Of a stretch of 64,000 bases of DNA, positions 8,278-64,000 are shown one piece after another (within the stretch, counting starts at the first letter, position 1; every line of letters starts with the position of its first letter). The notes beneath the pieces were generated by a model. The model was not told the DNA's origin, made no database searches, and saw only the letters and a list, made by a program, of their open reading frames with translations. Source of the stretch: a virus. A program made the position numbers and the translations under genes. The stretch lies in IMG/VR virus record IMGVR_UViG_2630968645_000001. One strand, 5' to 3'.

Positions 8278-8514
8278 ATGAGCACAGTAAAAGTCAGGAA
8301 AGAAAACCGTGTCTTGCATGTACCAGAAGGGCAAGTAGCCAAGTTTTTAAATCAAGGGTATGACCAAATTGACGAGACTGGCAATATCGTAAAACGTGCG
8401 ACTGGCGGCCGAATGGTTACATTGCAAGAATATAATCGCTTGCTTGACCGTGTGGCGGAATTAGAACAGGAGTTGTCCGCTCCAAAAGGCGCCAAACAAA
8501 AAAAGAGTGAGTGA
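8278..8514 (+). CDS. Hypothetical head-associated protein
   Basis: RBS GGGAGG; position after the capsid gene. Confidence 0.7.
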   Translation: MSTVKVRKENRVLHVPEGQVAKFLNQGYDQIDETGNIVKRATGGRMVTLQEYNRLLDRVAELEQELSAPKGAKQKKSE

Positions 8515-29259: not shown

Positions 29260-29316
29260 GCCGGATCCAGCCATAATAATGATCCACCAGGATAAATCAA
29301 AAAAGCCCTCGCAAAT

Positions 29317-31024
29317 CAGCTCTGAGGAGTAAAAATTTTTCGTGATAATTTAACTATTCCCCCCCCAAAAATGCGGCTAAATATGTAATAATTTAAATAA
29401 TTAGAGCTTGCTGGACGAATATTTTGGCATGGCTTAGTGACAAGTCGAATACAAGCTAAAATTTGATTCGTTCAGCAAGCCCTAATTAAACTTGGCTGTT
29501 TTGAGGGGGTTTTTATTTTGGTTACTAGAAAAGAAAAAAGAAATCGTGAAAAAGAAGCAAATTATTTTTTCGAGTTCCTTAAAATTCAGAAGCATTTTTT
29601 CAAAGACCTGATGAATAACCTAAAAAAGGTAGCAGACCACCGACATCAAAGCTATATCACTTATGGTCCAGAGGTCCTTTTATTTACGATGATGTTGAAA
29701 AATATGACCGGCCTAAAATCCATGAGAAACATGAGTGAGAGTTTTAATAAAGAAGAATGTATTAAAAATGTAGGGAAGGTGTTAGGCTTAGATTCTCTTG
29801 AAGAACTTCCACATTATGATACAATTAACGACTTTTTATCTGGCTTAGATGTAAATGAATTAGAAAAAATTAGAACGTATATGATTAAAGAATTATTGAA
29901 AAAAAGGTCTCTCGAGTCTTATCGAATTGAAGGAAAGTACTGGGGTGTCATCATTGATGGAACTGGATTACACACCTTTCATGAGAAACATTGTAAACAC
30001 TGCCTGAGACGGGCATATACAAATAAAGAAACAGGAGAAACGAACGTACTTTATATGCACCATGTACTTGAAGCCAAGCTTGTCGTGGGGGATATGGTCT
30101 TCAGTATTGCCTCCGAATTTATCGAAAATGAATCAGAAAATGTTTCTAAGCAAGATTGTGAATTAAAAGCCTTCGACAGGCTGGCAAAGAAAATAAAAAA
30201 AATATTTAAAAGACTACCGATTTGTATCTTGGGAGATAGTCTCTATGCATGTGAAACGGTATTTAATCTGTGCAGGGCGCACAAATGGAAATATATATGC
30301 AGATTTAAGGAAGGGAGAATTAAAAGTATCTCGACGGAGTTTAAGGCAATAAAAGAGCTGGAACAAAGTAAGGATCAGAATTCATTAGTTTGGGTGAATG
30401 ATATTGCCTACAAAGACAGAACGGTCAATCTGATGGAGGCCACAATGAAAACAGAGGATGGGAAATCGAAAGAGTATGTATTTATAACGGATATTAAAAT
30501 CACGAAAAAGAACGTGGAACGACTCATCGCTGCAGGAAGAAGCCGCTGGAAGATTGAAAATCAAGGATTTAACGAACAAAAAAATAATCGTTACAATATA
30601 GAACATGCCAATAGCCAAAACTACACAGCCATGAAAAATCATTATTTATTAGTTCAAATAACAGATATTATTAGACAGCTGTTTGAAAAAGGTTCGTCAA
30701 TCTTAAAAGCACTCAAAAAAACGGCAAAAGAAAAATCCTCAAATCTGTTGGAATCGTTTCGGACACGCATTTTAACAGACGAGGATTTCACCCATTTAAG
30801 TAAGCCAATACAAGTAAGGTTTACTTAATGGTTATATTATAGCAAAGGATGTGATGTAAAAAAAGGTTTTTTTGAAGTTATCCACAATTTTAAAAAAGAA
30901 ATTTGCAAATTCGGCTCTTTTTGACTTTGAAAGCAGAAAAAATAGATGGAAAAATTTTCTAAATGTGGATAAGTCATTTTATCATAAAACATCTAAAAAT
31001 TGATGAATTTACTCTTCAGAACTG
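29317..31024 (+). mobile_element. IS copy 2 with intact transposase, inserted in the lysis-cassette terminator
   Basis: Same IRs as copy 1; 9-bp TSD CTCGCAAAT (29308-29316, 31025-31033). Confidence 0.95.
29518..30828 (+). CDS. DDE transposase (436 aa)
   Basis: IIDGTG, LGDSLYA, GRSRWKIENQGF motifs. Confidence 0.92.
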   Translation: MVTRKEKRNREKEANYFFEFLKIQKHFFKDLMNNLKKVADHRHQSYITYGPEVLLFTMMLKNMTGLKSMRNMSESFNKEECIKNVGKVLGLDSLEELPHYDTINDFLSGLDVNELEKIRTYMIKELLKKRSLESYRIEGKYWGVIIDGTGLHTFHEKHCKHCLRRAYTNKETGETNVLYMHHVLEAKLVVGDMVFSIASEFIENESENVSKQDCELKAFDRLAKKIKKIFKRLPICILGDSLYACETVFNLCRAHKWKYICRFKEGRIKSISTEFKAIKELEQSKDQNSLVWVNDIAYKDRTVNLMEATMKTEDGKSKEYVFITDIKITKKNVERLIAAGRSRWKIENQGFNEQKNNRYNIEHANSQNYTAMKNHYLLVQITDIIRQLFEKGSSILKALKKTAKEKSSNLLESFRTRILTDEDFTHLSKPIQVRFT

Positions 31025-31041
31025 CTCGCAAATGTGGGGGC

Positions 31042-31070
31042 TTGAAATTTAAAAAATAACGTGATAATAT
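31042..31070 (+). promoter_or_regulatory. SigA promoter with extended -10
   Basis: TTGAAA-17bp-TAATAT preceded by TGn. Confidence 0.65.
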
Positions 31071-31076
31071 CTTTTT

Positions 31077-31183
31077 AAAGGTATCGCGTCCTTTTAAAAA
31101 AAAATGCGTGGATTGAAACTGTGAATTGGATATTTGAGCTAAGCAAAAACTGCCGGGGCTTATTCCTCGGCAGTTTTGCTTTA
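31077..31183 (+). ncRNA. Solitary type I-C-like CRISPR repeat RNA (Racr candidate)
   Basis: ATCGCGTCC...TGCGTGGATTGAAAC resembles I-C repeats (GTCGC...GCGTGGATTGAAAY); bounded by a promoter and the terminator AAGCAAAAACTGCCGGGG-cttatt-CCTCGGCAGTTTTGCTTT. Confidence 0.65.
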
Positions 31184-31252
31184 TAAATAAGGTCGTAAAA
31201 CCCCTACGCCTTTAGGCTAGTGGTAGTTCAATTTTTAGCCAGAATTGCGTGG

Positions 31253-31645
31253 CTAAATATTTGTTTCCCAGGCATCCACAGTTGCTTTCATAGCTTCCAT
31301 GGCATGTTTTTTTGTGGGAAAATGTTCTATGCCGGATTCCCCGTCATCGACATTGTAAGACGGAACTTCATCCGCATACGGATATTCCGGTCCCCAAGCG
31401 AAGAAGTAATTTCCATTTTCGGCCTTCCCGACGGCGTAGGCCTCGCCGTTATTTGGGAAGTTGTCACGCAATTCAACGATTTCTAATACCTCCACTTTCA
31501 ACTCCTCCTCTTTTTCCTCTACATATTTCCTCATCAATTGTCGGATGACTTCACTCTTGTTTTGCATCAGTGCTTCATTTACGCGGTCGAACCGATCAAG
31601 AAGATCCTGATCAATCCTGTATTGCCTCGTACGTTTCACTTTCAT
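31253..31645 (-). CDS. RHH (CopG-like) domain fused to an acidic unknown domain
   Basis: RBS GGGAGGT before ATG at 31645; TRQYRIDQDLLDRFDRVNEALMQNKSEVIRQLMRKYVE. Confidence 0.7.
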   Translation of the reverse strand: MKVKRTRQYRIDQDLLDRFDRVNEALMQNKSEVIRQLMRKYVEEKEEELKVEVLEIVELRDNFPNNGEAYAVGKAENGNYFFAWGPEYPYADEVPSYNVDDGESGIEHFPTKKHAMEAMKATVDAWETNI

Positions 31646-31682
31646 ACCTCCCATAACCAAAAAGATGGACACAACATGCGCA

Positions 31683-31711
31683 TTGACATGATAAAAGTTT
31701 GTGATTATAAT
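31683..31711 (+). promoter_or_regulatory. Perfect consensus SigA promoter
   Basis: TTGACA-17bp-TATAAT. Confidence 0.85.
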
Positions 31712-31716
31712 TAGTC

Positions 31717-31812
31717 CATGAACCATAACACAGGGTGTATTTAAATAGCATCTTTTTAATTAATTAACCTGTGCTATTTTTTGTTGAACCGTAACATGAG
31801 ATGTAGGGGAAG
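31717..31812 (+). CRISPR. Single-spacer type I-B-like mini-array / CRISPR-like RNA
   Basis: CATGAACCATAACACAGGGTGTATTTAAAT + 36-nt spacer + GTTGAACCGTAACATGAGATGTA(ggggaag); matches the clostridial I-B repeat family GTTGAACC.TAACATGAGATGTATTTAAAT. Confidence 0.75.
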
Positions 31813-31842
31813 AGGGAGCGAATATAAATCCGCTCTCTTTTC
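31811..31842 (+). terminator. Intrinsic terminator, probably bidirectional
   Basis: AGAGGGAGCG-aatataaatc-CGCTCTCTTTT. Confidence 0.7.
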
Positions 31843-32351
31843 TATTTTTCTGGTTTCCCGAATTTTTCCGTCAGCGCAGTTTCTGATATAAACGTATAGG
31901 CGCCGTTACTTTTAAAATGGCCCTCCGGATAATCGGCGCCGTCTATCTCTTCCACCGATATGCCCCAAGTTTTTGCGGCGTCCTTTGCTTCCCACACCTT
32001 AATGCCCAGCGGTTTAAAAGTTTTTCGCATTTCCCGGTACATTTCGGAGGCTTCCGCACGATTCTTTCGTCTGTTATTACGTTCTGCTATTATTTCCTTT
32101 ATTTTCTCGGCAGCCGCCAGGAACTCATCTTCCTCTACTTCCCACGTTCCGACCGTTTTATAATCTGTTTGTATTCTTGATTCGCTGTTGTCGAAAGTGG
32201 TTGACGGTAAAACCTCCCCAAGGCTGAATATGTAATCTTCCTTAACGGCATGTTCGACAATCGCAAATGCCTCGGCAGCTTTTGGTGTCCCCTTTACAAG
32301 CTCCGGGTAAACAGTTTCGGAATAAGACGTTTCTTTATACACAATTTTCAT
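31842..32351 (-). CDS. Hypothetical protein (anti-defence candidate)
   Basis: RBS AGGAGG; co-transcribed with 32371-32742. Confidence 0.75.
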   Translation of the reverse strand: MKIVYKETSYSETVYPELVKGTPKAAEAFAIVEHAVKEDYIFSLGEVLPSTTFDNSESRIQTDYKTVGTWEVEEDEFLAAAEKIKEIIAERNNRRKNRAEASEMYREMRKTFKPLGIKVWEAKDAAKTWGISVEEIDGADYPEGHFKSNGAYTFISETALTEKFGKPEK

Positions 32352-32370
32352 TTTTGTTTCCTCCTAATTT

Positions 32371-32742
32371 TTATGCGTTTATTTTAGCGCCTTTAAATCT
32401 CCAAAACGCTTTTGTTACCGGTGTATATGCGCCACGTTCTTGTGCCACAATAACACCGTTTTGCAATTCAAGAAACCCTTGTTCTTTACGGTATCCGGAT
32501 CCTGTATAGTAATTTACGTATAAGCGTTCCTTCCCGTATTTTGCCCAGTAGTTAACGGAATAGGAATCGCTCTTCATTACGGAATTGATGTATGTTTCAA
32601 CATCTTCCACCGTAATTTCTTTTGCTGCTTTTGCCTCCTTCCATGCGAGCCGGAGAGATTCTGCAAAGTATTCCTTTACCTTTCCGCCAAATTTACGTTG
32701 CCCTGCTTTAGCAATCTCCCAAGCCCGTTTCATAACGTTCAT
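32371..32742 (-). CDS. Hypothetical protein with MKRAWEIAK...LRLAWKEAK N-terminal motif (Acr candidate)
   Basis: First gene after a strong promoter; RBS GAAAGGAG. Confidence 0.75.
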   Translation of the reverse strand: MNVMKRAWEIAKAGQRKFGGKVKEYFAESLRLAWKEAKAAKEITVEDVETYINSVMKSDSYSVNYWAKYGKERLYVNYYTGSGYRKEQGFLELQNGVIVAQERGAYTPVTKAFWRFKGAKINA

Positions 32743-32773
32743 TTCTCTTATCTCCTTTCCTTATCTTGATTTC

Positions 32774-32802
32774 ATTGTATCATTTTGTATGTACATTGTC
32801 AA
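32774..32802 (-). promoter_or_regulatory. Near-consensus SigA promoter of the small-ORF operon
   Basis: Minus strand TTGACA-17bp-TACAAT. Confidence 0.8.
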
Positions 32803-32880
32803 TACATTTTTAGATATTTTTTATTGGTTTTTGAAAAAAAGTGATCCCGCCAAAAAACCAAAAAAATTTTTCGGGGGATA

Positions 32881-33008
32881 TAGACAAAATAGTTCAATTT
32901 TCTTATAATTTTGTTAGCAGGCGTTCCCAATTGTCCATGTATTTTGCAAAAAATACCCCCCTATGCCTGCACAAAAATAGAGCAGGTGGTTGGCCTGCTC
33001 CTTTTTTA
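32881..33008 (+). ncRNA. Putative small RNA (promoter plus about 95-nt hairpin transcript)
   Basis: TAGACA-17bp-TATAAT (32881-32909); GCAGGC...GCCTGC stem; terminator GAGCAGG-tggttgg-CCTGCTC followed by a T-run. Confidence 0.5.
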
Positions 33009-33037
33009 CGAAGTTTCTGGATGGGGAAGGGGAAGCC

Positions 33038-33268
33038 TTAATCTTCCCACACATCATCCATCATTTTTTCGATTTCTCTCTTCATTTCATCAGTGCGCTT
33101 TTTGTCAATTCGATATTCGCCGTTTTCATAAATCAGCGCATCGCCCTCTTTGGCACTCTTAGGAAGCTTGCTTCTTTCGATGTCCACCAGTTTCAGGCTC
33201 TCATCTTCACAAACTGCAAATTTTTCGCCCTCAAAATGATCAATAATATACCGTTTCATTGCCCTCAC
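33038..33268 (-). CDS. DUF3006-like protein
   Basis: YIIDHFEGEKFAVCE...LPKSAKEGDAL motif; downstream of the ComEC-like gene. Confidence 0.8.
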   Translation of the reverse strand: MRAMKRYIIDHFEGEKFAVCEDESLKLVDIERSKLPKSAKEGDALIYENGEYRIDKKRTDEMKREIEKMMDDVWED

Positions 33269-34401
33269 CTCGGCGTAAAAGACGTTTGTGTTTTGTATGT
33301 TTTGCCTTTGTAACTTGCCAAGACATCCACTTTTACTTTATATCCCTTTGCTGCCCGGCATATTTTAATAGGGAGTTTCGAGCCGACTTTCCCATTGTAT
33401 GTCGTATTTTTTGACTTATAGTGGCAAACTGCTTTATACTTTGTGCCGTTGGGCAGCCCTCGGACCGTTAGATAAATCGTGCTGTATTGTTTTGGCCTAG
33501 TATTGCTCAATGATGCGGACAATTTGTAGGATGCTTTTGCCGTTGAGCTGGTAGTAGGTGTGCTAACAGGCTTTGTATTAAAGCTTAAATTTTTGCCATC
33601 TGTGTTTGCAACGATCGTGCCTTGTTTGTCTGTACGAAAAACCTTTACTTTTGCAGCTTTTAAGCGATTAAGTGTATCTGCAGTAGGGTGGCCGTAGCTG
33701 TTTCCTTTGCCGACACTGATAACAGCATAGGCAGGTTTAACAGCTCGTAAAAAAGCGGTACTCGTGGATGTTTTAGCACCGTGATGACCAACTTTCAGCA
33801 CATCGGACCGTATATATTGTCTCGATTTAATCATGTCTGACTCGGCCTTAAATTCGGCGTCACCGGTAAACAGAAATGCTTTCTTATTATATTGAAGCCG
33901 TAAAACAGCGCTGTTGTCGTTTAGATCGCTATATTTTTTAACCGGTCCGGCAAACTTGGCAGAAACACCTTTTACGGATAAGCTCACACCCTTAGCAGCA
34001 GTTTTTGCCTTTAATCCCTCATTTTTAACGGCTCTCAGCAAATTAGCATAAGCTTGGGTGCTGTTGGACACTTTTGGAGCATAAAAAGATTTGACTTTGT
34101 ATGCTTTTAAGACCTCGTCCAATCCGCCGATGTGATCGGCATCTGGATGTGTCGCGATCATCACTTCAATGTCACCGACATGTTGCCGTTTTAAATATGA
34201 TACTACTTTGTTTCCGTCACGGCCGCCATCAATTATGATGTCCTCTCCGTTTGGTGCCTTAATATAAATCGAGTCACCCTGTCCAACGTTTATGTAGTGG
34301 ACATACATTTTCTTTGTTGCCGCGTCCGGGCTTTGTGGCAACGCTACCAAAGACAGCAATAAAGCGAGCGCAACTAAGACTTTAAACCTAAAATTTTTCA
34401 T
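33265..34401 (-). CDS. Secreted ComEC/Rec2-like metallo-beta-lactamase-fold hydrolase
   Basis: Signal peptide; INVGQGDSI, THPDADHIGG, LFTGDAE, LKVGHHGA motifs. Confidence 0.9.
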   Translation of the reverse strand: MKNFRFKVLVALALLLSLVALPQSPDAATKKMYVHYINVGQGDSIYIKAPNGEDIIIDGGRDGNKVVSYLKRQHVGDIEVMIATHPDADHIGGLDEVLKAYKVKSFYAPKVSNSTQAYANLLRAVKNEGLKAKTAAKGVSLSVKGVSAKFAGPVKKYSDLNDNSAVLRLQYNKKAFLFTGDAEFKAESDMIKSRQYIRSDVLKVGHHGAKTSTSTAFLRAVKPAYAVISVGKGNSYGHPTADTLNRLKAAKVKVFRTDKQGTIVANTDGKNLSFNTKPVSTPTTSSTAKASYKLSASLSNTRPKQYSTIYLTVRGLPNGTKYKAVCHYKSKNTTYNGKVGSKLPIKICRAAKGYKVKVDVLASYKGKTYKTQTSFTPR

Positions 34402-34551
34402 CTGCACATCTCCCTTCGTGAATATTTTATATGAGAATTTTGGATATGCAATGGGTTTTTGAAAAAAATATGTAAATGCCTGCAAAAAAGAGCAGGCTTT
34501 CACCTGCTCTTTTTTCTACTCAATACAGCTGGCTGGCTGTCATCTTTTGAG

Positions 34552-34843
34552 TTGTTGACGAATTGTTGACGAAATTCATCATTGTTGACCATTTTACTCC
34601 CCATAAAATCAGATAACTAATTTTTAAAATCCACTTATACCAATGGTTTTCGATTCATTTCCATCGAGTTCCTAAATTGCCTAACACCTTCCCAAGGTGT
34701 GGGTCGCGGGTTCGAGTCCCGTCTTCCGCTTAAAGTTTAAACGCTCAAACCTCTTGATATAAAAGGGTTTGAGCGTTTTTTGCTTTTCAATAAATTGTAG
34801 CTCACGGAAGCACAATTTATGACTTGTTGACGGATTGTTGACG
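34552..34843. promoter_or_regulatory. attP region with integrase arm-type direct repeats TTGTTGACG
   Basis: Copies at 34552, 34563, 34582 (TTGTTGACC), 34824 and 34835 flank the tRNA-like core. Confidence 0.7.
34683..34730 (+). other. attP core: 3' part of tRNA-Gly(CCC); not a complete tRNA
   Basis: ACACC-TTCCCAA-GGTGT anticodon arm, GGTTCGAGTCC T-arm, acceptor CTTCCGCT; D-arm and 5' acceptor strand absent; adjacent to the integrase 3' end. Confidence 0.85.
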
Positions 34844-38334: not shown

Positions 38335-38371
38335 ATATATTCGCCTCGAGTTATAAGTTTTTCCAGTTGGT

Positions 38372-38998
38372 TTACAGTGAAAATTGTTCCTTGCCGTTAG
38401 CCATGATTACTAAATTCTGCTTTTTTACGTTTGGAATTCTATAAAATATTGGATCTGGTTGTAGCTCACGTAATTCATCAGAATCTGTATTGAAAATACA
38501 AGTTTCCTGCAATAAATTTAAGCGGTTCAAAGCAAAATCAACCGTCACATTATATTCTTTCGCAAGTTCATCAGCTAAAATTTGACGATTATTATAATGT
38601 TGAGAAACATCAGCTTTTAATATCCAGCTAACCGGCATTAATAAATTTGCAGCCAATTTGAAAGCCTGCAGTTCCGTTTTATTCAGTGAATATTCGTTCA
38701 TCAGCAATTCGTTTGAATAGTGTAGATACAAATGAGAAAATTCTTCAGCAAGAATTTGTCTTTCGACAATTTCATTTTTGTATGTCCCTAATTCAATAAG
38801 GCCCCGTCGCTTATCTTTAATAGGCCAGGATCGACTGTATGGTTCCTTGATGTGATTTATTTTCATGCCATATAAATCGCATAGTGTAAATAGATCAATT
38901 TCAGACGGATGCTTGAATTGAACATGTTTCAATATTTTCTTTGCCTCTTCTTCGTAAAAATCTTTTTTCTTCATTAAAATAAATTGTCGAAGTCTCAT
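38372..38998 (-). CDS. ImmA/IrrE-family metallopeptidase (anti-repressor protease)
   Basis: LAEEFSHLYLH, ELQAFKLAANLLMP; downstream of the repressor. Confidence 0.85.
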   Translation of the reverse strand: MRLRQFILMKKKDFYEEEAKKILKHVQFKHPSEIDLFTLCDLYGMKINHIKEPYSRSWPIKDKRRGLIELGTYKNEIVERQILAEEFSHLYLHYSNELLMNEYSLNKTELQAFKLAANLLMPVSWILKADVSQHYNNRQILADELAKEYNVTVDFALNRLNLLQETCIFNTDSDELRELQPDPIFYRIPNVKKQNLVIMANGKEQFSL

Positions 38999-47994: not shown

Positions 47995-48109
47995 GCGCTG
48001 GACTTCTCTATTGCCTCATATACCCGTTTTAAAACGGAACATGACTATTTATATACCAAAATCTTAAAACGGCTTATAAGCCAAAATAAACAGTTTAGGA
48101 GTGGTATGG

Positions 48110-48436: not shown

Positions 48437-49147
48437 GTGATGGAGACAATGTCGGTTGACCGGATGATCAAGCTTTTTGAAAAACTGCGATACAGGCACG
48501 ATATGTTTACTGTCTTTGCGGATTTTCTTGAAATGTCGGCGATATCTATTTCAAACGCAGTAGATTTTCAACATATGAAAGAGCGTGAGGCACGATACAT
48601 GGATATCGTGAAAAAGTATGACAAGAAGGAAATGAAAATATTTCCTCAAATCCTGGGTGAGCTGATTAACTCACTGGACAAGCATCCGTCAGATGTGCTG
48701 GGTGATATCTTTATGAAATTGGAACTTTCAAGTTCCTGGCATGGTCAGTTTTTTACACCGATGTCGCTTGCAAATATGTTTGCAGAACTGACAATTAGCG
48801 GATATGAGAAGCAAATTAAGAAGAACGGTTACTTCACATTAAATGAGCCTGCTTGTGGTGGAGGAGCAACCATAATCGGCATGGTCAATGCATTGGAAAA
48901 ACGAAAGTTAAATTATCAGGCCTGTATGCGGGTTGTGGCACAAGATATCGATGCAAAAGCAGTTCACATGTGTTATCTGCAGCTGAGCCTTCTTGGCGTG
49001 GATGCGGTCATTCTGCAGGGCGATACGCTTTCCTATAAATTTTCAGACGTATGGATGACGCCAAACCATATTTTGAGATGGGCACGTTCACGGAAACCAG
49101 TACCGGATCCAAAACCGCAATTTGAACAACTAAGCCTTGCACTTTGA
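48437..49147 (+). CDS. Short N6-adenine methyltransferase-like protein (HsdM-like fragment)
   Basis: GQFFTPMSLA, EPACGGG, AQDID, GDTL motifs; no NPP(Y/F). Confidence 0.8.
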   Translation: MMETMSVDRMIKLFEKLRYRHDMFTVFADFLEMSAISISNAVDFQHMKEREARYMDIVKKYDKKEMKIFPQILGELINSLDKHPSDVLGDIFMKLELSSSWHGQFFTPMSLANMFAELTISGYEKQIKKNGYFTLNEPACGGGATIIGMVNALEKRKLNYQACMRVVAQDIDAKAVHMCYLQLSLLGVDAVILQGDTLSYKFSDVWMTPNHILRWARSRKPVPDPKPQFEQLSLAL

Positions 49148-49216: not shown

Positions 49217-49420
49217 GTGAACCTATTGGAAGATAATAAACAAAACATGACAACTGAAATAGATTTGATGGAGACAGCTGTGTATATCGTCCAGGATGGG
49301 CAGCTGACTAAAGTGACTCCAAAATCTTTTGGCCAGGATATCTTGATATGGCAAAACGGAAAGGTTTTTGATATAGAGCGTATCGATCGGATGAGACTAA
49401 TCGGGCAGGATGTCATATAG
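49217..49420 (+). CDS. DUF3954-like protein
   Basis: AVYIVQDGQL...FGQDILIWQNGKV motif. Confidence 0.7.
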   Translation: MNLLEDNKQNMTTEIDLMETAVYIVQDGQLTKVTPKSFGQDILIWQNGKVFDIERIDRMRLIGQDVI

Positions 49421-49577: not shown

Positions 49578-49760
49578 GAGCAAGTTATGAGAACAATAGT
49601 TTTTCTAAGAAACAGGGGACCACAATTCACGCCAATCGAGGAAGAATTTGAGTTTGAAGATAATTCGACGGATAAAGAAATCATAGATGCATTTGAGGAT
49701 TGGGTTTGGGATGAAGTTGGTGAAGAATTCACTTGGTTTGAGAAAGAGGAGGATAAATAA
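49578..49760 (+). CDS. Hypothetical acidic protein
   Basis: RBS GGAG; EEEFEFEDNSTDKEIIDAFEDWVWDEVG read manually; ends approximate. Confidence 0.5.
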   Translation, partial: EQVMRTIVFLRNRGPQFTPIEEEFEFEDNSTDKEIIDAFEDWVWDEVGEEFTWFEKEEDK

Positions 49761-50113
49761 TGAACCTACAAAAATTATTTAAAGCGCAGGCGGAATTGGA
49801 CAAACACATTATTGGTTGAACCAAAATTCGAAGGGTGGACAATTATGACAAAAGATGAATTGATTGAATTATTAAAAGCGAATGAACTTGCAGGAGATGC
49901 GAAAGTATTCATTCCTAGCAGATACGATGACGGTTCATTAGTTGAATTAGATGAAGTTAACATTGACCGAATTGGTACATTAAAAAATCCAATAGAAGTC
50001 ATTGTACTGTATTGAAAGAAGGAGATAGTGAAATGTTACTGATTTTTCTTGGCGGATTCATTTTCGGCCTGTCACTTGGCAGGCTGATATGGAATAAATA
50101 GTGAGGTGACAAG

Positions 50114-56243: not shown

Positions 56244-57690
56244 TGATGCTAGTATAGTTTCATGGACACCCTTTAGTGAAATATAATATTAACGAAGGGA
56301 TGTGTCCTGATATGGGTAACACAAGCGAAAAACGTAAAAGTTATCATGCTGAATTTAAAGAAATGGTGGTTGAGCTTTATCAAACTGGAACACCAGTAAA
56401 ACAGATCTGCAGCGAATATGGCCTGTCTGAAACGACAATCTACAAATGGATCAGAAAACAAAAACCGGTTAAGCTGGATGACGGGAGCTCTTTTACCCCG
56501 GAAGAATTTCTGAACCTGCAAAAAGAATTGCACCGGCTGAAAGAGGAAAACGAAATCTTAAAAAAAGCTATGGCCATATTCGCAAAGAAGTAGATCAAAC
56601 CACTGTTATATCCATGATTGACGAGATAAGAGCCAAACACCATTATGACCTTAAAACCATGTGTACGGTCCTTGGCGTGCCGAGAAGTACCTACTATCAA
56701 TCCAAACAAAAAAAAGAGTCAAAAACAAAACGGGAAAACCGGGAGTTGACAGACAGAATACGAAAAATCCATACGGAAAGCAAGCAGAGGTACGGAGCGC
56801 CGAAGATCCGCCATATGCTTGAAAAAGAAGGGCTCAAAGTCAGCCTGAAACGGGTTCAGCGTTTGATGAAGGCTGCAGGCATTTATTCCATTATCAGAAA
56901 AAAGTACCGTCCCCATTCCAATAAGGGCAAGATGGAAGAACACGATAACCTGCTGAACCAGGACTTCTCAACGACAACCATCAACGAGAAATGGGTTACG
57001 GATATTACGTACATTCATACTTTGAGAGACGGTTGGTGCTACCTGGCTTCCGTAATGGATTTACATTCCAGAAAGATTGTCGGTTACGCTTTTGACCGCC
57101 ACATGACGACTGAACTGGCTTTAAAGGCAGTAGAAAACGCTTATCAGGCACAACGTCCAGGTCCGGGATTGATCTTGCATTCTGATTTGGGATCCCAGTA
57201 TACAAGCGAGAAATTTGCAGAATACATGGAAAAGAAGCAGTTCAAACACTCCTTCAGTAAAAAAGGTTGCCCATACGATAACGCCTGCATTGAGTCTTTC
57301 CATGCAATTCTGAAAAAGGAAGAGATCTACAGAGTCAACTATTTGAACTTTCAAGCTGCCAAAAGAGCCTTATTCGAATTTATAGAAGGCTGGTACAATC
57401 GGAAACGGATTCATAGCTGCTTGGGCTATATGACGCCACAAGAGACAGAAGACAGTATCAAAGGGGCAGCGTAGTGCTCTTCACAATTTTACAAGCATCC
57501 GCTTTACATGGAGTGGCGGGTGTGGCAGGCTTGTTTGCCATGCGAAAGAAATCATTGCCCCTTTCGCCCTTCGCATAACACCACGCCCGCAGAGGCTCCA
57601 TGTCAAGCGACCAGCGATGTCATGAAAAATATGGCATGAGATCAAAATTAAATTTCACTTATTGGTGTCCAAAATATTGACTTAAATCCA
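56244..57690 (+). mobile_element. IS3-family element (orfA 56311-56593, orfB 56614-57474)
   Basis: TG...CA ends with imperfect IRs ending in TGGACACC; 3-bp TSD TAT; WVTDITY, HSDLGSQY, DNACIESF rve motifs. Confidence 0.93.
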
Positions 57691-60600
57691 TATGGGCACA
57701 TTACGTGGTGAGTTGAAGAAATGGGGAAAGCAGAATCAAAATAAGGAAAATAAGCCACGAGGAAGGCCGAGAAAGACGAAATCAGAGCGATTAAGTCAAC
57801 ACGATATAAAAACACTTATGGGATATTATGATCCCGTATATAAGCGAGGGAGAGGCGGAGCATGGAGAAATGGAAGATGAACAAGCAAGAAATCTCACAG
57901 GCATTAAAGGATTATCATTGGATGATCAACGAAATCAAGAGACAGCGTAAAATGCTGGAGAATGAAGTGAGAAGCAACATCACATCCCAATATGGGGAAG
58001 AATCCGCCTTACCGAAGCCAAAAGGAACAAATAGTGATCCGGTTTACCGTGAAATTTTACGTCGGGAGAAAACGCATCAATGGATTAATCGGCTGCAGAA
58101 GAAAGTTCTATTTATTCAGGAACATGTTGATTGTGTACGAGGAGAACGCGAACGTGCTGTGCTGGAGTGCCTGCTGGACGGGATGAGCGTAATTGCCATT
58201 AGCCGGCACATGGGACTATCAGAAAGGAATATTCGTCTTATACGGGAAGACATTGTCAATGCTATGTATGAAAATGCCGGATTTGCCGGAAATGCCGGAT
58301 TTGCCGGTTTTGCAGGATAGATGCAGCACAAGAAAAAATATATGTAAAATGGAAGGCAGGACCGGAGAGGAAAAATCCGGGGCGTGAGAAATTTCACGAA
58401 AACCATAATTCACCTTGCGGTGAATAATTAAGGGTTCGAGGTTATCCCGGACGAGCTTCTTAATTCGAGACGGGGTAGCAGAAATGTGGACCTGGGTTAA
58501 AACCTTGTCGGTTTCGAGGCTTATTTTATTGCAGGAATTTGCCTTCTTTTGTCGAAGTTATTGACGAAGGGAGGCGAATGAAATGAAGGTTTATGAACTA
58601 ATCAAGGAATTAGAAAACTATCCACATCAAGATGCAGAGATTGGCGTGAATTTCCAAATAACATTAGCACAATCTGATAAAATAATTTCCAATATCACTA
58701 AAGTAAACGGCATCTTGAAACCTTTAAACAAAAATGATAATACGACGGTATTATTAGACACAGAAGAAATCAGAGAAAACATTTAAGCATCCTTCGGGGT
58801 GCTTTTTATTTTGCTCCAAAACAAACACAAATAGTCGGAGGTGGCAGGTGATGTAGCAGGTGACGGACAAATACATTCAAGCTGAAAAAGATTATGTCAA
58901 AGGCATGAAATACAAGGACATTGCTGAAAAATATGGCGTGTCTTTAAATACGGTCAAGTCATGGAAAAAGCGTTATGGTTGGACGCGTGAAAAGGGTGCA
59001 CACAAAGAAAAAAGTGTGCACACAAAAAATAAAAGGGGCGCACCTGTCGGGAATATAAATGCAAAAGGAAATAAAGGCGGTGCGGCTCCAAAAGGAAACC
59101 AAAACGCTGTCACTCACGGTTTCTTCTCCAAATATCTGCCACAGGAATCACTGGACATTCTGGAAGAGATTCAAGAGCATTCTCCCGTCGACATGCTCTG
59201 GGATCAGATAATGATTCAGTATGCTGCTATTATACGAGCGCAGAAAATAATGTTCGTTGAATCAAAAGATGAAATGATCAAGGAGATTAAGAAAACCAAG
59301 TCAGATATCGGGGAGAATTACGAGACGAACGAAGAAGAGTGGGAATTTCAATTCGCTTGGGATCGCCAGGCGACTTTTCTTAACGCCCAATCTCGGGCCA
59401 TGTCAGAACTGCGAAGCTTGATCAAGCAGTTTAATGAACTGGCACACGAAGATGATGAACGCCGTCTGAAGCTTGAACAGATGCAGCTAAACATTGATAA
59501 AACAAAAGCTAAGATTAAGGAAATCACGAATGAAAGCAACCAAGACGACCGGACGATCATCATCAACAACGAGGATGAAATGAGGCGGATTTTGAATGAA
59601 CGCAATCAAGATAACCGACCTGATTAATCCAGTGTTTTATGATTTCTGGCTAAATGAGAAGCCAAACAGTGTGCTAAAAGGCGGCCGTTCATCCATGAAA
59701 TCCTCGGTCATCTCTTTGAAATTGCTTGTTGATTTTTTAAATGATGATCAGGGGAATGTTGTGGTGCTGCGGAAAGTAGGAAAATATCTTTCCACATCCG
59801 TTTATGAACAAATCAAATGGGCCATATACATGCTCAAAGTCGAAAATGAATTCTACTTTGGAAAATCACCATTGATCATTCGGCACAAACGGACGAACAC
59901 GGCTTTTTATTTTTACGGCGTTGATGATCCGATGAAAATCAAATCCGCCAAGATTGCAAAGGGATATGTCATGGCACTTTGGTTCGAGGAACTGGCCGAG
60001 TTCGCAGGCGTCGAGGATATCGATATTGTTTCCGATACATTCATCCGGCAGGACCTGGGCGAAAAGGAAGTAAAAATTTATTATTCTTACAACCCACCTC
60101 GAAACCCGTATGAGTGGGTGAATGAATGGGTAGATAGCAAAGCTAGCGATCCGGATTATTTTGTTCACCATTCAACGTACATGGATGATGAAAAAGGTTT
60201 CTTGTCGCATCAGATGATCCGGAAAATTGAACAATACAAGGAAAATGATCTTGATTACTGGCGCTGGATGTATGCGGGTGAAATTATCGGACTTGGCGAT
60301 ATGGTTTACAATATGAACCATTTCCATTGGATTGATGAATTGCCAAGTGATGATGATCTGCTGCTGATCGATATCGCGATTGACTCCGGATACCAAACAT
60401 CGGCGACAACATTTTGTGCGTTTGGGCTTACAAAACGGCTTAATGTTATTCTGCTCGATACTTTTTACTATTCCCCTCAAAATCGAGTGGTTAAGAAGGC
60501 ACCAAGTGAGTTCTCGGACGACTTGAAAGAGTTTGAAAGGGAACTATCGAGGTTTAAAAGAAACATCGATATGAGGACGATAGACAGTGCAGAAGGAGCG

Positions 60601-63600
60601 TTGCGAAACCAATACATGAAAGATTATGGTATCCAGCTACATCCGATTGCAAAAAAGAAAAAGGTAAACATGATCGAAAATGTTCAGGACCTGCTGGCAC
60701 AAGGTCGTTTTTTTATGCTCAGAAACAGTAACAATCAAATCTTTTATGAAGAACACAAAAAGTATCAATGGGATGCCGACACGTTGCAAAGCGATGACCC
60801 GAAAGTCGTCAAAGAGGACGACCATACTTGTGATGCTTTTCAATACTATGTAAATGACAATTTAAGGAAACTGAACTTGAAATATTAAGGCGGTGATGCC
60901 ATGTTTCGAACCATCCTAGCCAAGATAAAGGGGGTGCTCGCTAAAATGGGATTGATCAAACAAATTAATAATGTTTCACAGCTGGCCGCCGTACAGGAGA
61001 GTGAGGCACAATACAGCCGAATTGAAGTATGGAAGTCTTTATACCACGGCTATTTGCCTTTTTACCAGGAAGGTGATGTACGAATCCCATTTCACGACAC
61101 CAAATGGACGGATGCTGCTGGAAATGAGCATAAACGCCGCCGGGCATCTATGAAGATGCCAAAAGTAATAGCGGAAGAAATGGCTTCACTGGTTTTTAAT
61201 GAGAAATGTGTAATTAATATCTCGTCTGATCAGGAAATTCAAGAACTGATCGATGATATTTTTAAAGAAAACCGGTTTGAAAAACGATTCCAAAATTACC
61301 TCGAATATGGGTTTGCCATGGGCGGATTTGTCATGAAACCTTATTATGACGATGGTATCAAGATCGCTTTTGTTAGGGCTGACTGTTTCCTGCCGACCCA
61401 AAGCACAAATGATGAGATTCAAGCCGGCGTGTTCATTAACGAGACGCGGAAAGGTGACAAATTTTATACGCTGCTTGAATGGCACAATTGGGACGGTACT
61501 GACTATGTGATCACGAATGAGCTGTATGAAAGTAAAACAAAGGGTTCACTAGGATCAAAGGTGCCGTTGTCCGATCTTTATCCTGACCTAGAAGAAACCG
61601 TAACAATTCAAGGCCTTACGCATCCATTGTTTGTGTATGTTAAGCCAAATCTTGCAAACAATTTTGAACCGGATTCACCGTTAGGCATTTCCATTTATGC
61701 GAATGCAATCGACACGCTAAAATCTCTTGATATCGCATTTGACAGCTTTCAACGCGAATTTGTGTTGGGAAAACGCCGAATTATGGTACCACATACGGCG
61801 ATCCGGACAGTAGTTGACCCGGAAACAGGCCAGATGCAGAGATACTTTGACATAAACGATGAAGCATATATCAGCTATGCGGAAAACGATACTCAAAAAA
61901 TGATTCAAGAGATGGCCGCAGAACTGCGGATAGAAGAACACATATCCGCAATCAATGCGTTGCTGAACATTCTGGCTGCGCAGACTGGTTTCAGCTCCGG
62001 CACCTTTGCTTTTACGGGTGGGGCAAGCGTCCAAACAGCAACACAAGTCATCTCGGAAAACAGCAAAACATTCCGGACTAAAAATAGCCATGAAATCATG
62101 ATTGAAGCCGGGATAAAAGAATTAATTGAGGCCATTTTGCAATTGCTTGTCATTTATCAAGAGCTTCCGGCAATACCGGATATTGATGTGACAATTGACT
62201 TTGATGACTCCATTGCAGAGGACAGGCAGGCAAACGCTAATTATTATAGCGGTCTCGTATCTATGGGGCTTATGCCAAAGCTTAAAGCAATCATGAGAAT
62301 ATTCGACTTGCCGGAAGAAGAAGCTCGTGAGTGGCTGGCGCAAATCCAACAGGAAAACGGTCAACAGGTCCCACAAATGATGGAAAGCTTCCTGAACACG
62401 GCGGAAACAGATGAGGTAGGGTGATAATCTATGTTAACTCCCAACCAACTGGAACAGCTTGCAAAGCCCCTTATTAATATTTATGGGCAGCTGGAAATAG
62501 ACATCATCAAAGCCATTGTAAAACGTCTGGAGACAAAGCAGGACATAACAAAGGACAATGTATTGCATTGGAAGTTTGAGAAGCTCCGGCAGCTCGGAGA
62601 CCTAAATAAAGACGTAATTCAACTCATCTCACTGATGACCGGCAAGACAGAAAAGGAGTTGGAAAAGCTGATTAAAGAGAGCATGAAGCAGAGCGTGCAA
62701 CCTATGGATAATTGGTTGAGTGGTTTGGCTGATGACGGAAAAATTGATAAAGCACCGCCACTCGAGCAAGACACGCGTATTTTTAATACACTTCTCACAT
62801 TTCAGAGGCAGGCAACATCAACGCTCAACTTAACAAATTCGACCATTTTGCAGAACAGCCAACAAGTTTACCGGGACATTATCTCCCAGTCGACAGTAAG
62901 CGTCATGACTGGCATGAAAACCCATCAGCAGGCGGTAGCAGATACGGCAGCCAAATGGGCAGAAAAAGGCATTCCGGCACTTGTGGACAAAAAAGGACGA
63001 CAATGGTCAATTGAAGGGTATATTCCGATGGTGGTTAAGTCAGTCGCTAACAATGTGGCAAATCAAACGCAATTCGACCGGATGGACAGCTATGGGGTTG
63101 ACTTAATTGAAATCAGCAGTCACGTTGGCGCTCGTCCGGGATGTGCTCCCTATCAGGGCAGGATATTTGACCGTAACGGTAAAAGTAAGAAATATCCCTC
63201 GTTGGCAAGCACGACATATGGAAAGCCCGCCGGTATATTTGGTATTAATTGCCATCATCACCCTTACCCGTATATCCCAGGTGTAAGCGTAAAGCGATAT
63301 GAGCCATATCCGATAGAGGAAAATGCAAAAGCCTATGAGCAAAGCCAACAGCAACGCAAGATGGAACGGGATATCCGCAAGGCCAAGAATAATCTTGAAG
63401 TGATCCGGCGGCTCGGTACAAAAGAAGATGTTGCCGCCGCCCGAAAGAAAGTGAGGGAAAAGCAAGCGAACATGAGGGCATTTATCAATGATACCGGCAG
63501 AACGCGGAGGTATGATCGAGAGCAAATCATTAAAAAATGAAATATTAAATGATTTGTCGGAAATATACCGGCTACAATGTGAGGTGAGCGCAAATGCTAA

Positions 63601-64000
63601 AATATCGAAAGAAACCAGTCGTGATTGAAGCGGTACAGTATTTAGGTAACAAAATTATCAAGATATATGTAAGTTTGTCGGTAAAGAGTTGACAATGGAG
63701 TACATGGATACGGAGCAAATCTTAACCATTGAAACACTTGAAGGCGAATTGAAAGCAAATAAAGGTGATTACATCATCAAGGGTGTGCAAGGTGAGTTTT
63801 ACCCATGCAAGCCGGACATTTTTGAGAAAACATATGAGCCTGCCGAATAGGTGGAGATGATCCAACATCTCGGATCAACGCTGTTATGTGTGAAATTAAG
63901 TCGCCAATAGGCGTCTTTTTTAATTCCAATACGAGGAGCGATGCAAATGTTTAACATTCTACGTTTAAACTTGCAATTTTTTGCAGCAGACACCGGGGCT
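57317..64000 (+). repeat. Exact repeat of 1-6684 (circular wrap); duplicates the activator, terS, terL, portal and minor capsid genes
   Basis: All ORFs recur at an offset of +57316. Confidence 0.97.

Follow-up and report, generated by a model that had tools for sequence, protein, structure and literature searches.

The analysed window, a viral DNA stretch of 64,000 nt (IMG/VR record IMGVR_UViG_2630968645_000001), represents a circular or terminally redundant genome of 57,316 bp, with its first 6.7 kb repeated at 57317-64000. Among the phage genes are those for structural proteins, including the portal, for a holin and endolysin, and for an integrase that is 100% identical to one of Heyndrickxia (Bacillus/Weizmannia) coagulans DSM 1. 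The phage DNA is found in isolates of two organisms and in several RNA-seq studies of them, as well as in metagenomes from bioreactors and food fermentations. Based on the integrase identity and this pattern of occurrence, we conclude that it is a temperate phage of H. coagulans. A megablast search of GenBank phages with positions 29500-33500 returned no match.

At 31042-31183 on the plus strand, within the accessory region that separates the lysis genes from the integrase, there is a type I-C RNA element. Upstream of it lies an insertion sequence (29314-31024, +; DDE transposase ORF 29518-30828, Pfam DDE_Tnp_1), included here as context only, of which at least seven copies at 99-100% identity occur in the H. 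coagulans-type genome G044. The insertion ends 17 nt upstream of the -35 box of the I-C element, and the I-C promoter is intact. It is missing from sister phages, and homology with G001 begins at 31025. The insertion breaks the terminator of the preceding gene, which the sister phages show, and a second DDE-transposase insertion sequence lies inside the phage at 25992-27287.

Downstream, a ribbon-helix-helix (RHH, CopG) protein of 128 aa is encoded on the minus strand at 31253-31639, convergent with the I-C RNA gene and sharing a bidirectional terminator with it; this protein could be an Aca-like regulator. A 44-nt stretch right after the I-C terminator (31180-31223) matches a relative's genome at 89% (G040 contig 157). 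The promoter region of the RHH gene overlaps the promoter of a neighboring type I-B unit through the palindromic sequence ATTATAAT. At 31667-31675, RNA-seq reads and contigs (three runs) have loose ends that resemble insertion sequence inverted repeats with a 9-bp target duplication, and some lysogens therefore appear to have an extra insertion between the RHH gene and the I-B unit promoter. The original prediction had cited solitary repeat units near anti-CRISPR genes, a setting that finds no backing here: the neighboring ORFs lack recognizable Acr homology, with 31842-32351 and 32371-32742 having no sequence relatives in the PDB and Pfam being uninformative beyond Phage_Gp111. Further along, an MBL-fold protein (33265-34503, -) is 51% identical over 373 residues to a host gene (L117 7687-9018) directly upstream of the CreR-like RNA and cas3 of a host type I-C locus (locus 2, below). 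That host gene has a weak Anti-Pycsar_Apyc1 hit in the precomputed Pfam list, and the likeness of the two proteins may be a trace of DNA exchange or may reflect an anti-defense nuclease.

Sequence inspection, a promoter scan and folding placed the promoter, repeat unit and terminator of the I-C element within 31042-31183, just where they had been predicted. The sigma-A type promoter with an extended -10 (31042-31070, +) consists of a -35 box TTGAAA at 31042-31047, a 17-nt spacer with TG at 31062-31063, and a -10 box TAATAT at 31065-31070, giving a predicted transcription start at about 31077. It is followed by a 39-nt degenerate type I-C repeat (psiR; 31081-31119, +), identified by Rfam, shuffled controls and alignment with host elements, which reads GTATCGCGTCC, then T4A9, then TGCGTGGATTGAAAC. 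A 5-bp basal stem (CGCGU/AUGCG, including a G-U pair) abuts the handle, and the fold is a weak hairpin with a large A/U loop, so processing by Cas5c is not assured. The T/A-rich expanded loop noted in the original prediction is there, but it is a variable homopolymer insertion, being T4A8 in two sister phages and missing from a third.

The 3' part of the repeat had been taken for the type I-C handle end, and this assignment was borne out: the 11-nt 5'-handle region TGGATTGAAAC is intact at 31109-31119, and the psiR aligns both with the H. coagulans I-C repeats and with a host CreR-like psiR. The handle-forming part is kept when the phage unit (TGCGTGGATTGAAAC) is set against the host CreR-like RNA (GTGCGTGGATTGAAAT) and the H. 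coagulans repeat ends (GCGTGGATTGAAAT and GTGTGGATTGAAAT). The final base of the phage handle is C, which is T in the H. coagulans repeats and C in one host CreR-like RNA as well. Rfam CRISPR-DR9 matches the psiR over its full length at 22 bits, a value below the gathering score and hence a lead only. An exact search for the 15-mer TGCGTGGATTGAAAC gives a single hit in the window and none in any of 100 shuffles; a chance expectation of 0.61 for this 15-mer holds only when two mismatches are allowed. An exact-pattern scan of genomes of the species for the phage's own I-C repeat unit found none.

A spacer-like guide segment (psiS; 31120-31144, +) with the seed TGTGAATTGGA-T-ATTT and 21-25 unpaired nt runs from the handle into a rho-independent terminator hairpin (31141-31182, +), defined by folding and alignment, with the core CTGCCGGGG / CCTCGGCAG followed by a T-run. 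The terminator folds at -30.2 kcal/mol (z = -2.4) and is flanked by an A-run and a T-run, making it bidirectional; a simple terminator scan did not pick up the hairpin, although the fold and the T-run behind it are clear. Weak Rfam hits to BSnc120, ohsC and others were dismissed as terminator look-alikes. The hairpin is likely the 3' hairpin of the mature RNA, and this part of the original prediction fits, the host counterpart described below having the same layout of single repeat, guide and terminator with homologous terminators. The element is not a canonical array or mini-array, since there is a single repeat and the 21-25-nt guide runs into the terminator with no second repeat. In the window the I-C handle occurs once, in the one I-C-type unit, and I-C cas genes are absent; about 600 nt separate the unit from the next CRISPR-like repeat, which is of type I-B.

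For expression, raw stranded RNA reads from one public run were placed on 31025-31900. One strand channel gave about 4 at 31025-31084 and then 31, 89 and 98 across 31085-31174, followed by 125 and a rise to about 410. The other stayed at 0-4 across 31055-31174 and at 0-6 up to 31204, then covered the minus-strand RHH gene and faded at the bidirectional terminator. Under the usual convention, which we assume (first mate antisense), the rise in the first channel places a plus-strand start within one bin of 31077. Coverage runs on past the I-C terminator, indicating read-through, and an RNA of about 100 nt would escape capture in the library used.

The host genome used for comparison, G044 (GCA_018101145.1), is of the same species as H. 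coagulans or very close to it, and its Cas3 is 100% identical to H. coagulans proteins. It carries two type I-C loci: locus 1, with cas3-cas5-cas8c-cas7-cas4-cas1-cas2 and a 112-repeat array, and locus 2, with cas3-cas5-cas8c-cas7 and a 9-repeat array. H. coagulans strains have been described as having two I-C repeat types and one matching I-B repeat type (PMC8954581). We found spacers matching the phage at 97-100% identity in both I-C arrays, five in the locus-1 array and two of the eight in the locus-2 array. The protospacers lie at 38345-38378, 48007-48041, 32927-32953, 34774-34806, 48645-48679, 49731-49764 and 49325-49358, and every one of the seven has a 5' TTC. These matches indicate that the phage is a real target of type I-C immunity and that TTC is the PAM of both I-C systems. 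A solitary I-C unit with its own promoter and terminator, as originally proposed, sits in the accessory island of a temperate phage that host I-C systems target. Pfam gives no HD domain hit for the locus-2 Cas3, so interference by this locus is only putative.

BLAST of the phage region against G044 gave one match (91% over 34 nt, E = 6e-6), covering the 3' end of the repeat and the segment after it and lying about 300 nt upstream of the locus-2 cas3. The host element found there is a degenerate repeat with a 5-bp hairpin, a handle, the guide TGTGAATTGGAAATTTACG and a terminator. Its target, TTC followed by TGTGAATTGGAAATTTA, is on the opposite strand of the locus-2 cas3 promoter (TTGCAG-17-TATAAT), between the -10 box TATAAT and the cas3 start. 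The host guide is identical to the target over 17 contiguous nt. The first 11-16 nt of the phage guide equal the host CreR-like guide, so the stretch of about 20 nt that the original prediction had left without a role is a conserved guide-like segment and not a linker, matching both the host CreR-like guide and the cas3 promoter site.

Against the H. coagulans target, the phage guide matches over 11 contiguous nt and at 16 of 18 positions overall, with mismatches at positions 12 and 17 and the match resuming at positions 13-16. Type I crRNAs leave every sixth position unpaired, as seen in Cascade structures, and position 12 is one such position. Against the target of another allele (L140), the phage guide matches over 16 of 16 contiguous nt; that strain's own CreR guide mismatches its target at positions 6, 12 and 18, and the phage guide fits better. 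The TTC-plus-seed pattern was found once among 42 family genomes, at the cas3 promoter site. Searches for guide targets in the phage itself and in other viral contigs gave none that was convincing, and for the full 25-nt guide the viral collection held no protospacer except the element itself.

A CreR-like element precedes cas3 in all seven related loci, with its target 5-71 nt before the annotated cas3 start. These loci come from H. coagulans, H. acidiproducens, a contig with its Cas3 annotated as Schinkia azotoformans, one annotated as Paenibacillaceae, and metagenomic contigs. Across the seven, changes at guide positions 2 and 9 are accompanied by changes in the target. Judged by this covariation as its signature, the host element upstream of the locus-2 cas3 is a putative CreR-type autoregulator. 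Locus 1 contains a different unit between cas3 and cas5 (L118 ~8440-8500, minus strand; G044 contig 1), which comprises a degenerate I-C repeat, GTCGC..GCGCGGATTGAAAT, a guide-like segment rich in A/T and then a hairpin. The unit may be a CreR-like RNA serving the main I-C locus, and we saw no mimic of it in the phage. Without a mimic for locus 1 and its 112 repeats, the phage would disarm only one of the two systems by repression.

Four further viral contigs carry the I-C element, all with promoter and terminator. Two have the same hairpin with T4A8, and in one of these an A-U pair replaces the G-U pair. In another, the unit is of the canonical 32 nt, the loop is short and guide position 12 is G, and the remaining contig has a very different, G+C-rich hairpin followed by the same 16-nt seed. 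The seed is thus kept across three viral psiR lineages while position 12 varies (T or G). In the alignment of viral and host elements the handle and seed are invariant and the terminator stems align too, and about 22 nt of the distal host guide are missing from every viral copy. The homology through handle, seed and terminator, combined with this shortening, leads us to regard the phage gene as a shortened derivative of the host CreR gene.

Together these results suggest that the I-C element is a phage-borne mimic of the host cas-regulating crRNA-like RNA (CreR), that is, a type I-C Cracr, a reading to which we assign a probability of roughly 80%. Three features of a Cracr are present: viral location outside a cas locus, a psiR with handle, and a seed match of at least 9 nt to both a CreR guide and a PAM-flanked site. 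The preprint describing Cracrs (bioRxiv 10.1101/2024.10.29.618823) uses a criterion of at least 9 PAM-proximal matches, describes shortened spacers as a trait of viral mimics, and predicts I-C and I-B candidates in Bacillota. The PAM-proximal matches to the CreR guide and cas promoter, the viral location, the psiR and the terminator therefore class the element as a Cracr and not as a plain Racr.

We infer the following sequence of events from processing to phage benefit. The RNA would be transcribed from its own promoter with a start near 31077, and host Cas5c would recognize the repeat-like hairpin and handle, yielding a product made up of the handle TGGATTGAAAC, the short guide and the terminator hairpin. 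The processed RNA would join host Cas5c, Cas7 and Cas8c in a shortened Cascade. Its guide would pair over only about 16-17 PAM-proximal nt with the TTC-flanked site between the -10 box and the cas3 start codon of locus 2, and such partial pairing would allow binding without cleavage by Cas3. The cas3-cas5-cas8c-cas7 operon would then be kept repressed, the RNA would also compete with immune crRNAs for Cas proteins, and a phage or prophage targeted by host I-C spacers would be protected. Racr-type sequestration is part of the Cracr model and may act alongside repression.

In the simpler case of a plain Racr, the unit would only sequester Cas5c and Cas7 in aberrant subcomplexes, and the downstream 21-25 nt would have no guide function. 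A solitary phage repeat unit (SRU) with its own promoter does look like the SRUs reported as Racrs, among which RacrIC1 is an inhibitory I-C SRU, and there are further viral contigs whose I-C SRUs have intact hairpins and lead into unrelated sequence, in some cases with a terminator. Sequestration also belongs to the Cracr model, making the two explanations partly nested. We nevertheless consider a plain Racr unlikely given that the seed is constant across three viral hairpins and identical to the host CreR-like guide and to the PAM-flanked cas3 promoter site, that it varies at position 12, which is expected to be unpaired, and that the Cracr preprint's own filter assigns the element to the Cracrs. 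The RNA anti-CRISPR role of the original prediction is the best reading, but its plain decoy does not agree with a 3' segment that matches the TTC-flanked cas3 promoter site. A pool of Racr/Cracr candidates is provided by nine unrelated viral contigs (L004-L013), in which solitary I-C repeats keep the hairpin intact, GTCGCGTCCC..GGGCGCGTGGATTGAAAC. In one pair of them a terminator follows after about 18 nt and one contig contains a second, partial repeat, while the rest have flanks that look coding.

The homology to the host element, the MBL-fold gene (33265-34503), a possible sign of earlier DNA exchange in being 51% identical to the gene just upstream of the host CreR-cas3 locus, and the abundance of insertion sequences in the region would all fit an inert relic, a fragment of host DNA around the CreR gene that the phage picked up and that is now functionless. 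This is very improbable, as at least four phages keep a near-consensus promoter and a terminator, the hairpin loop and distal guide have diverged around a strictly conserved seed, the shortening by about 22 nt is common to all viral copies, and transcript coverage begins at the predicted start. Phages are known to carry mini-arrays directed at rival elements, and a guide RNA for the phage's own use, loaded onto a type IV effector or directing host Cascade to competing mobile elements, could have been the purpose here as well. Type IV operons of H. coagulans DSM 1 are reported to lie within prophages (PMC8954581). Yet the handle and hairpin are of I-C type and homologous to the CreR-like RNA of the I-C locus, the sole PAM-flanked match found is in the cas3 promoter, the 25-nt guide has no protospacer in the viral collection besides the element itself, and the guide is too short and too partly matched for interference, leaving this the least probable of the readings.

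The neighboring type I-B mini-array (31683-31849, +), detected by Rfam CRISPR-DR3 hits and the promoter scan, bears on the reach of the Cracr reading. Its perfect promoter, TTGACA-17-TATAAT (31683-31711, +), is followed on the same strand by psiR1 with an intact handle (31717-31746, CRISPR-DR3), a 36-nt psiS (31747-31782), psiR2 truncated after 23 nt (31783-31805, CRISPR-DR3) and a terminator at ~31812-31849. The same I-B layout, with psiR2 cut at the same place, occurs upstream of cas6 in a Lederbergia sp., a metagenome contig and H. coagulans H-1. In the Lederbergia sp. and the metagenome contig the guides match the cas6 promoter over 22 nt, adjoining TCA. Over their first 18 positions the phage I-B guide and that of H-1 disagree at 3, 6, 12 and 18, leaving one effective mismatch, and the next-best match of the phage guide in the H-1 locus is a TCA-flanked site just upstream of the cas6 -35 box. 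In the 42 family genomes, nothing but A/T-rich chance matches with no relation to cas genes turned up for the I-B guide. The I-B unit is thus probably a second viral mimic of the same kind, a reading that the seed mismatch at position 3 makes weaker than that for the I-C element.

Taking the two units together, we tentatively propose, at slightly less than even odds, that the 31.0-31.9 kb island is a multiplexed RNA counter-defense in which two separately promoted, host-derived mimics would silence I-C locus 2 through the cas3 promoter and the I-B system through the cas6 promoter. The I-C mimic would be tuned to its promoter target rather than to the host CreR, acting as a 'super-repressor', and the homologous terminator would be a direct record of CreR capture from host to phage.

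Type I-C Cracr activity is so far a prediction, and the I-C element provides a natural and well-defined system in which to test it. H. coagulans is cultivable and is an industrial probiotic and lactic-acid producer for which lysogens, RNA-seq data and matching host spacers exist. Our analysis also provides covariation evidence for a CreR-type autoregulator in a type I-C locus, and it traces the phage copy to such a host gene, the terminator included. Differences in CRISPR activity and phage sensitivity between H. coagulans production strains may be due to prophage RNAs of this kind, and the compact scaffold of repeat, guide and terminator could serve as a minimal guide format for I-C tools.

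We regard the element as a clean new example of a recently described RNA anti-CRISPR and not as a new principle, and the I-C candidates of the Cracr preprint may include this phage. The experiments in that preprint covered V-A, I-E and I-F only, with I-C Cracrs being predicted (bioRxiv 10.1101/2024.10.29.618823). Like Cracrs, the element is a viral crRNA-like RNA outside a cas locus that combines a single degenerate repeat, a spacer-like segment and a rho-independent terminator, the layout of CracrVA1, with a PAM-proximal seed that matches a cas promoter and the host CreR and a spacer shorter than that of the host RNA. It differs in its setting, where two units for I-C and I-B have separate promoters in one island, whereas the co-arrayed Cracrs of the preprint target variants of the same type.

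The host counterpart corresponds to the CreR RNAs (bioRxiv 10.1101/2023.03.10.532045) in having a degenerate repeat and a guide that partly matches, and covaries with, the cas promoter. A CreR lies within the cas locus for host autoregulation, in contrast to the present copy, which is on a phage and lacks about 22 nt of distal guide. In the abstract of that preprint, CreR is shown experimentally for I-B, I-E and V-A, not for I-C. With the Racrs, including RacrIC1 (Camara-Wilpert et al., Nature 2023, PMC10651486), the element shares the form of a solitary (pro)phage repeat unit that mimics the host repeat and is expected to compete for Cas proteins; Racr activity against I-C has been shown for RacrIC1, a unit from a Bifidobacterium prophage. 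Racrs sequester without a guide, whereas the present element has a guide-like segment with a promoter target. RacrIC1 also lies 11 nt downstream of an AcrIC5 homologue on one transcript, unlike the I-C element with its own promoter and no recognizable acr neighbor.

The same logic extends to two further groups of RNAs. In the CreA antitoxin RNAs of CreTA modules, a partly complementary crRNA-like RNA makes the Cas effector a transcriptional repressor and viral copies hijack the circuit, although the target in the present case is the cas3 promoter and not a toxin gene. The viral single-guide RNAs (vsgRNAs), derived from tracr-L, follow this repressor logic in type II Cas9 systems.
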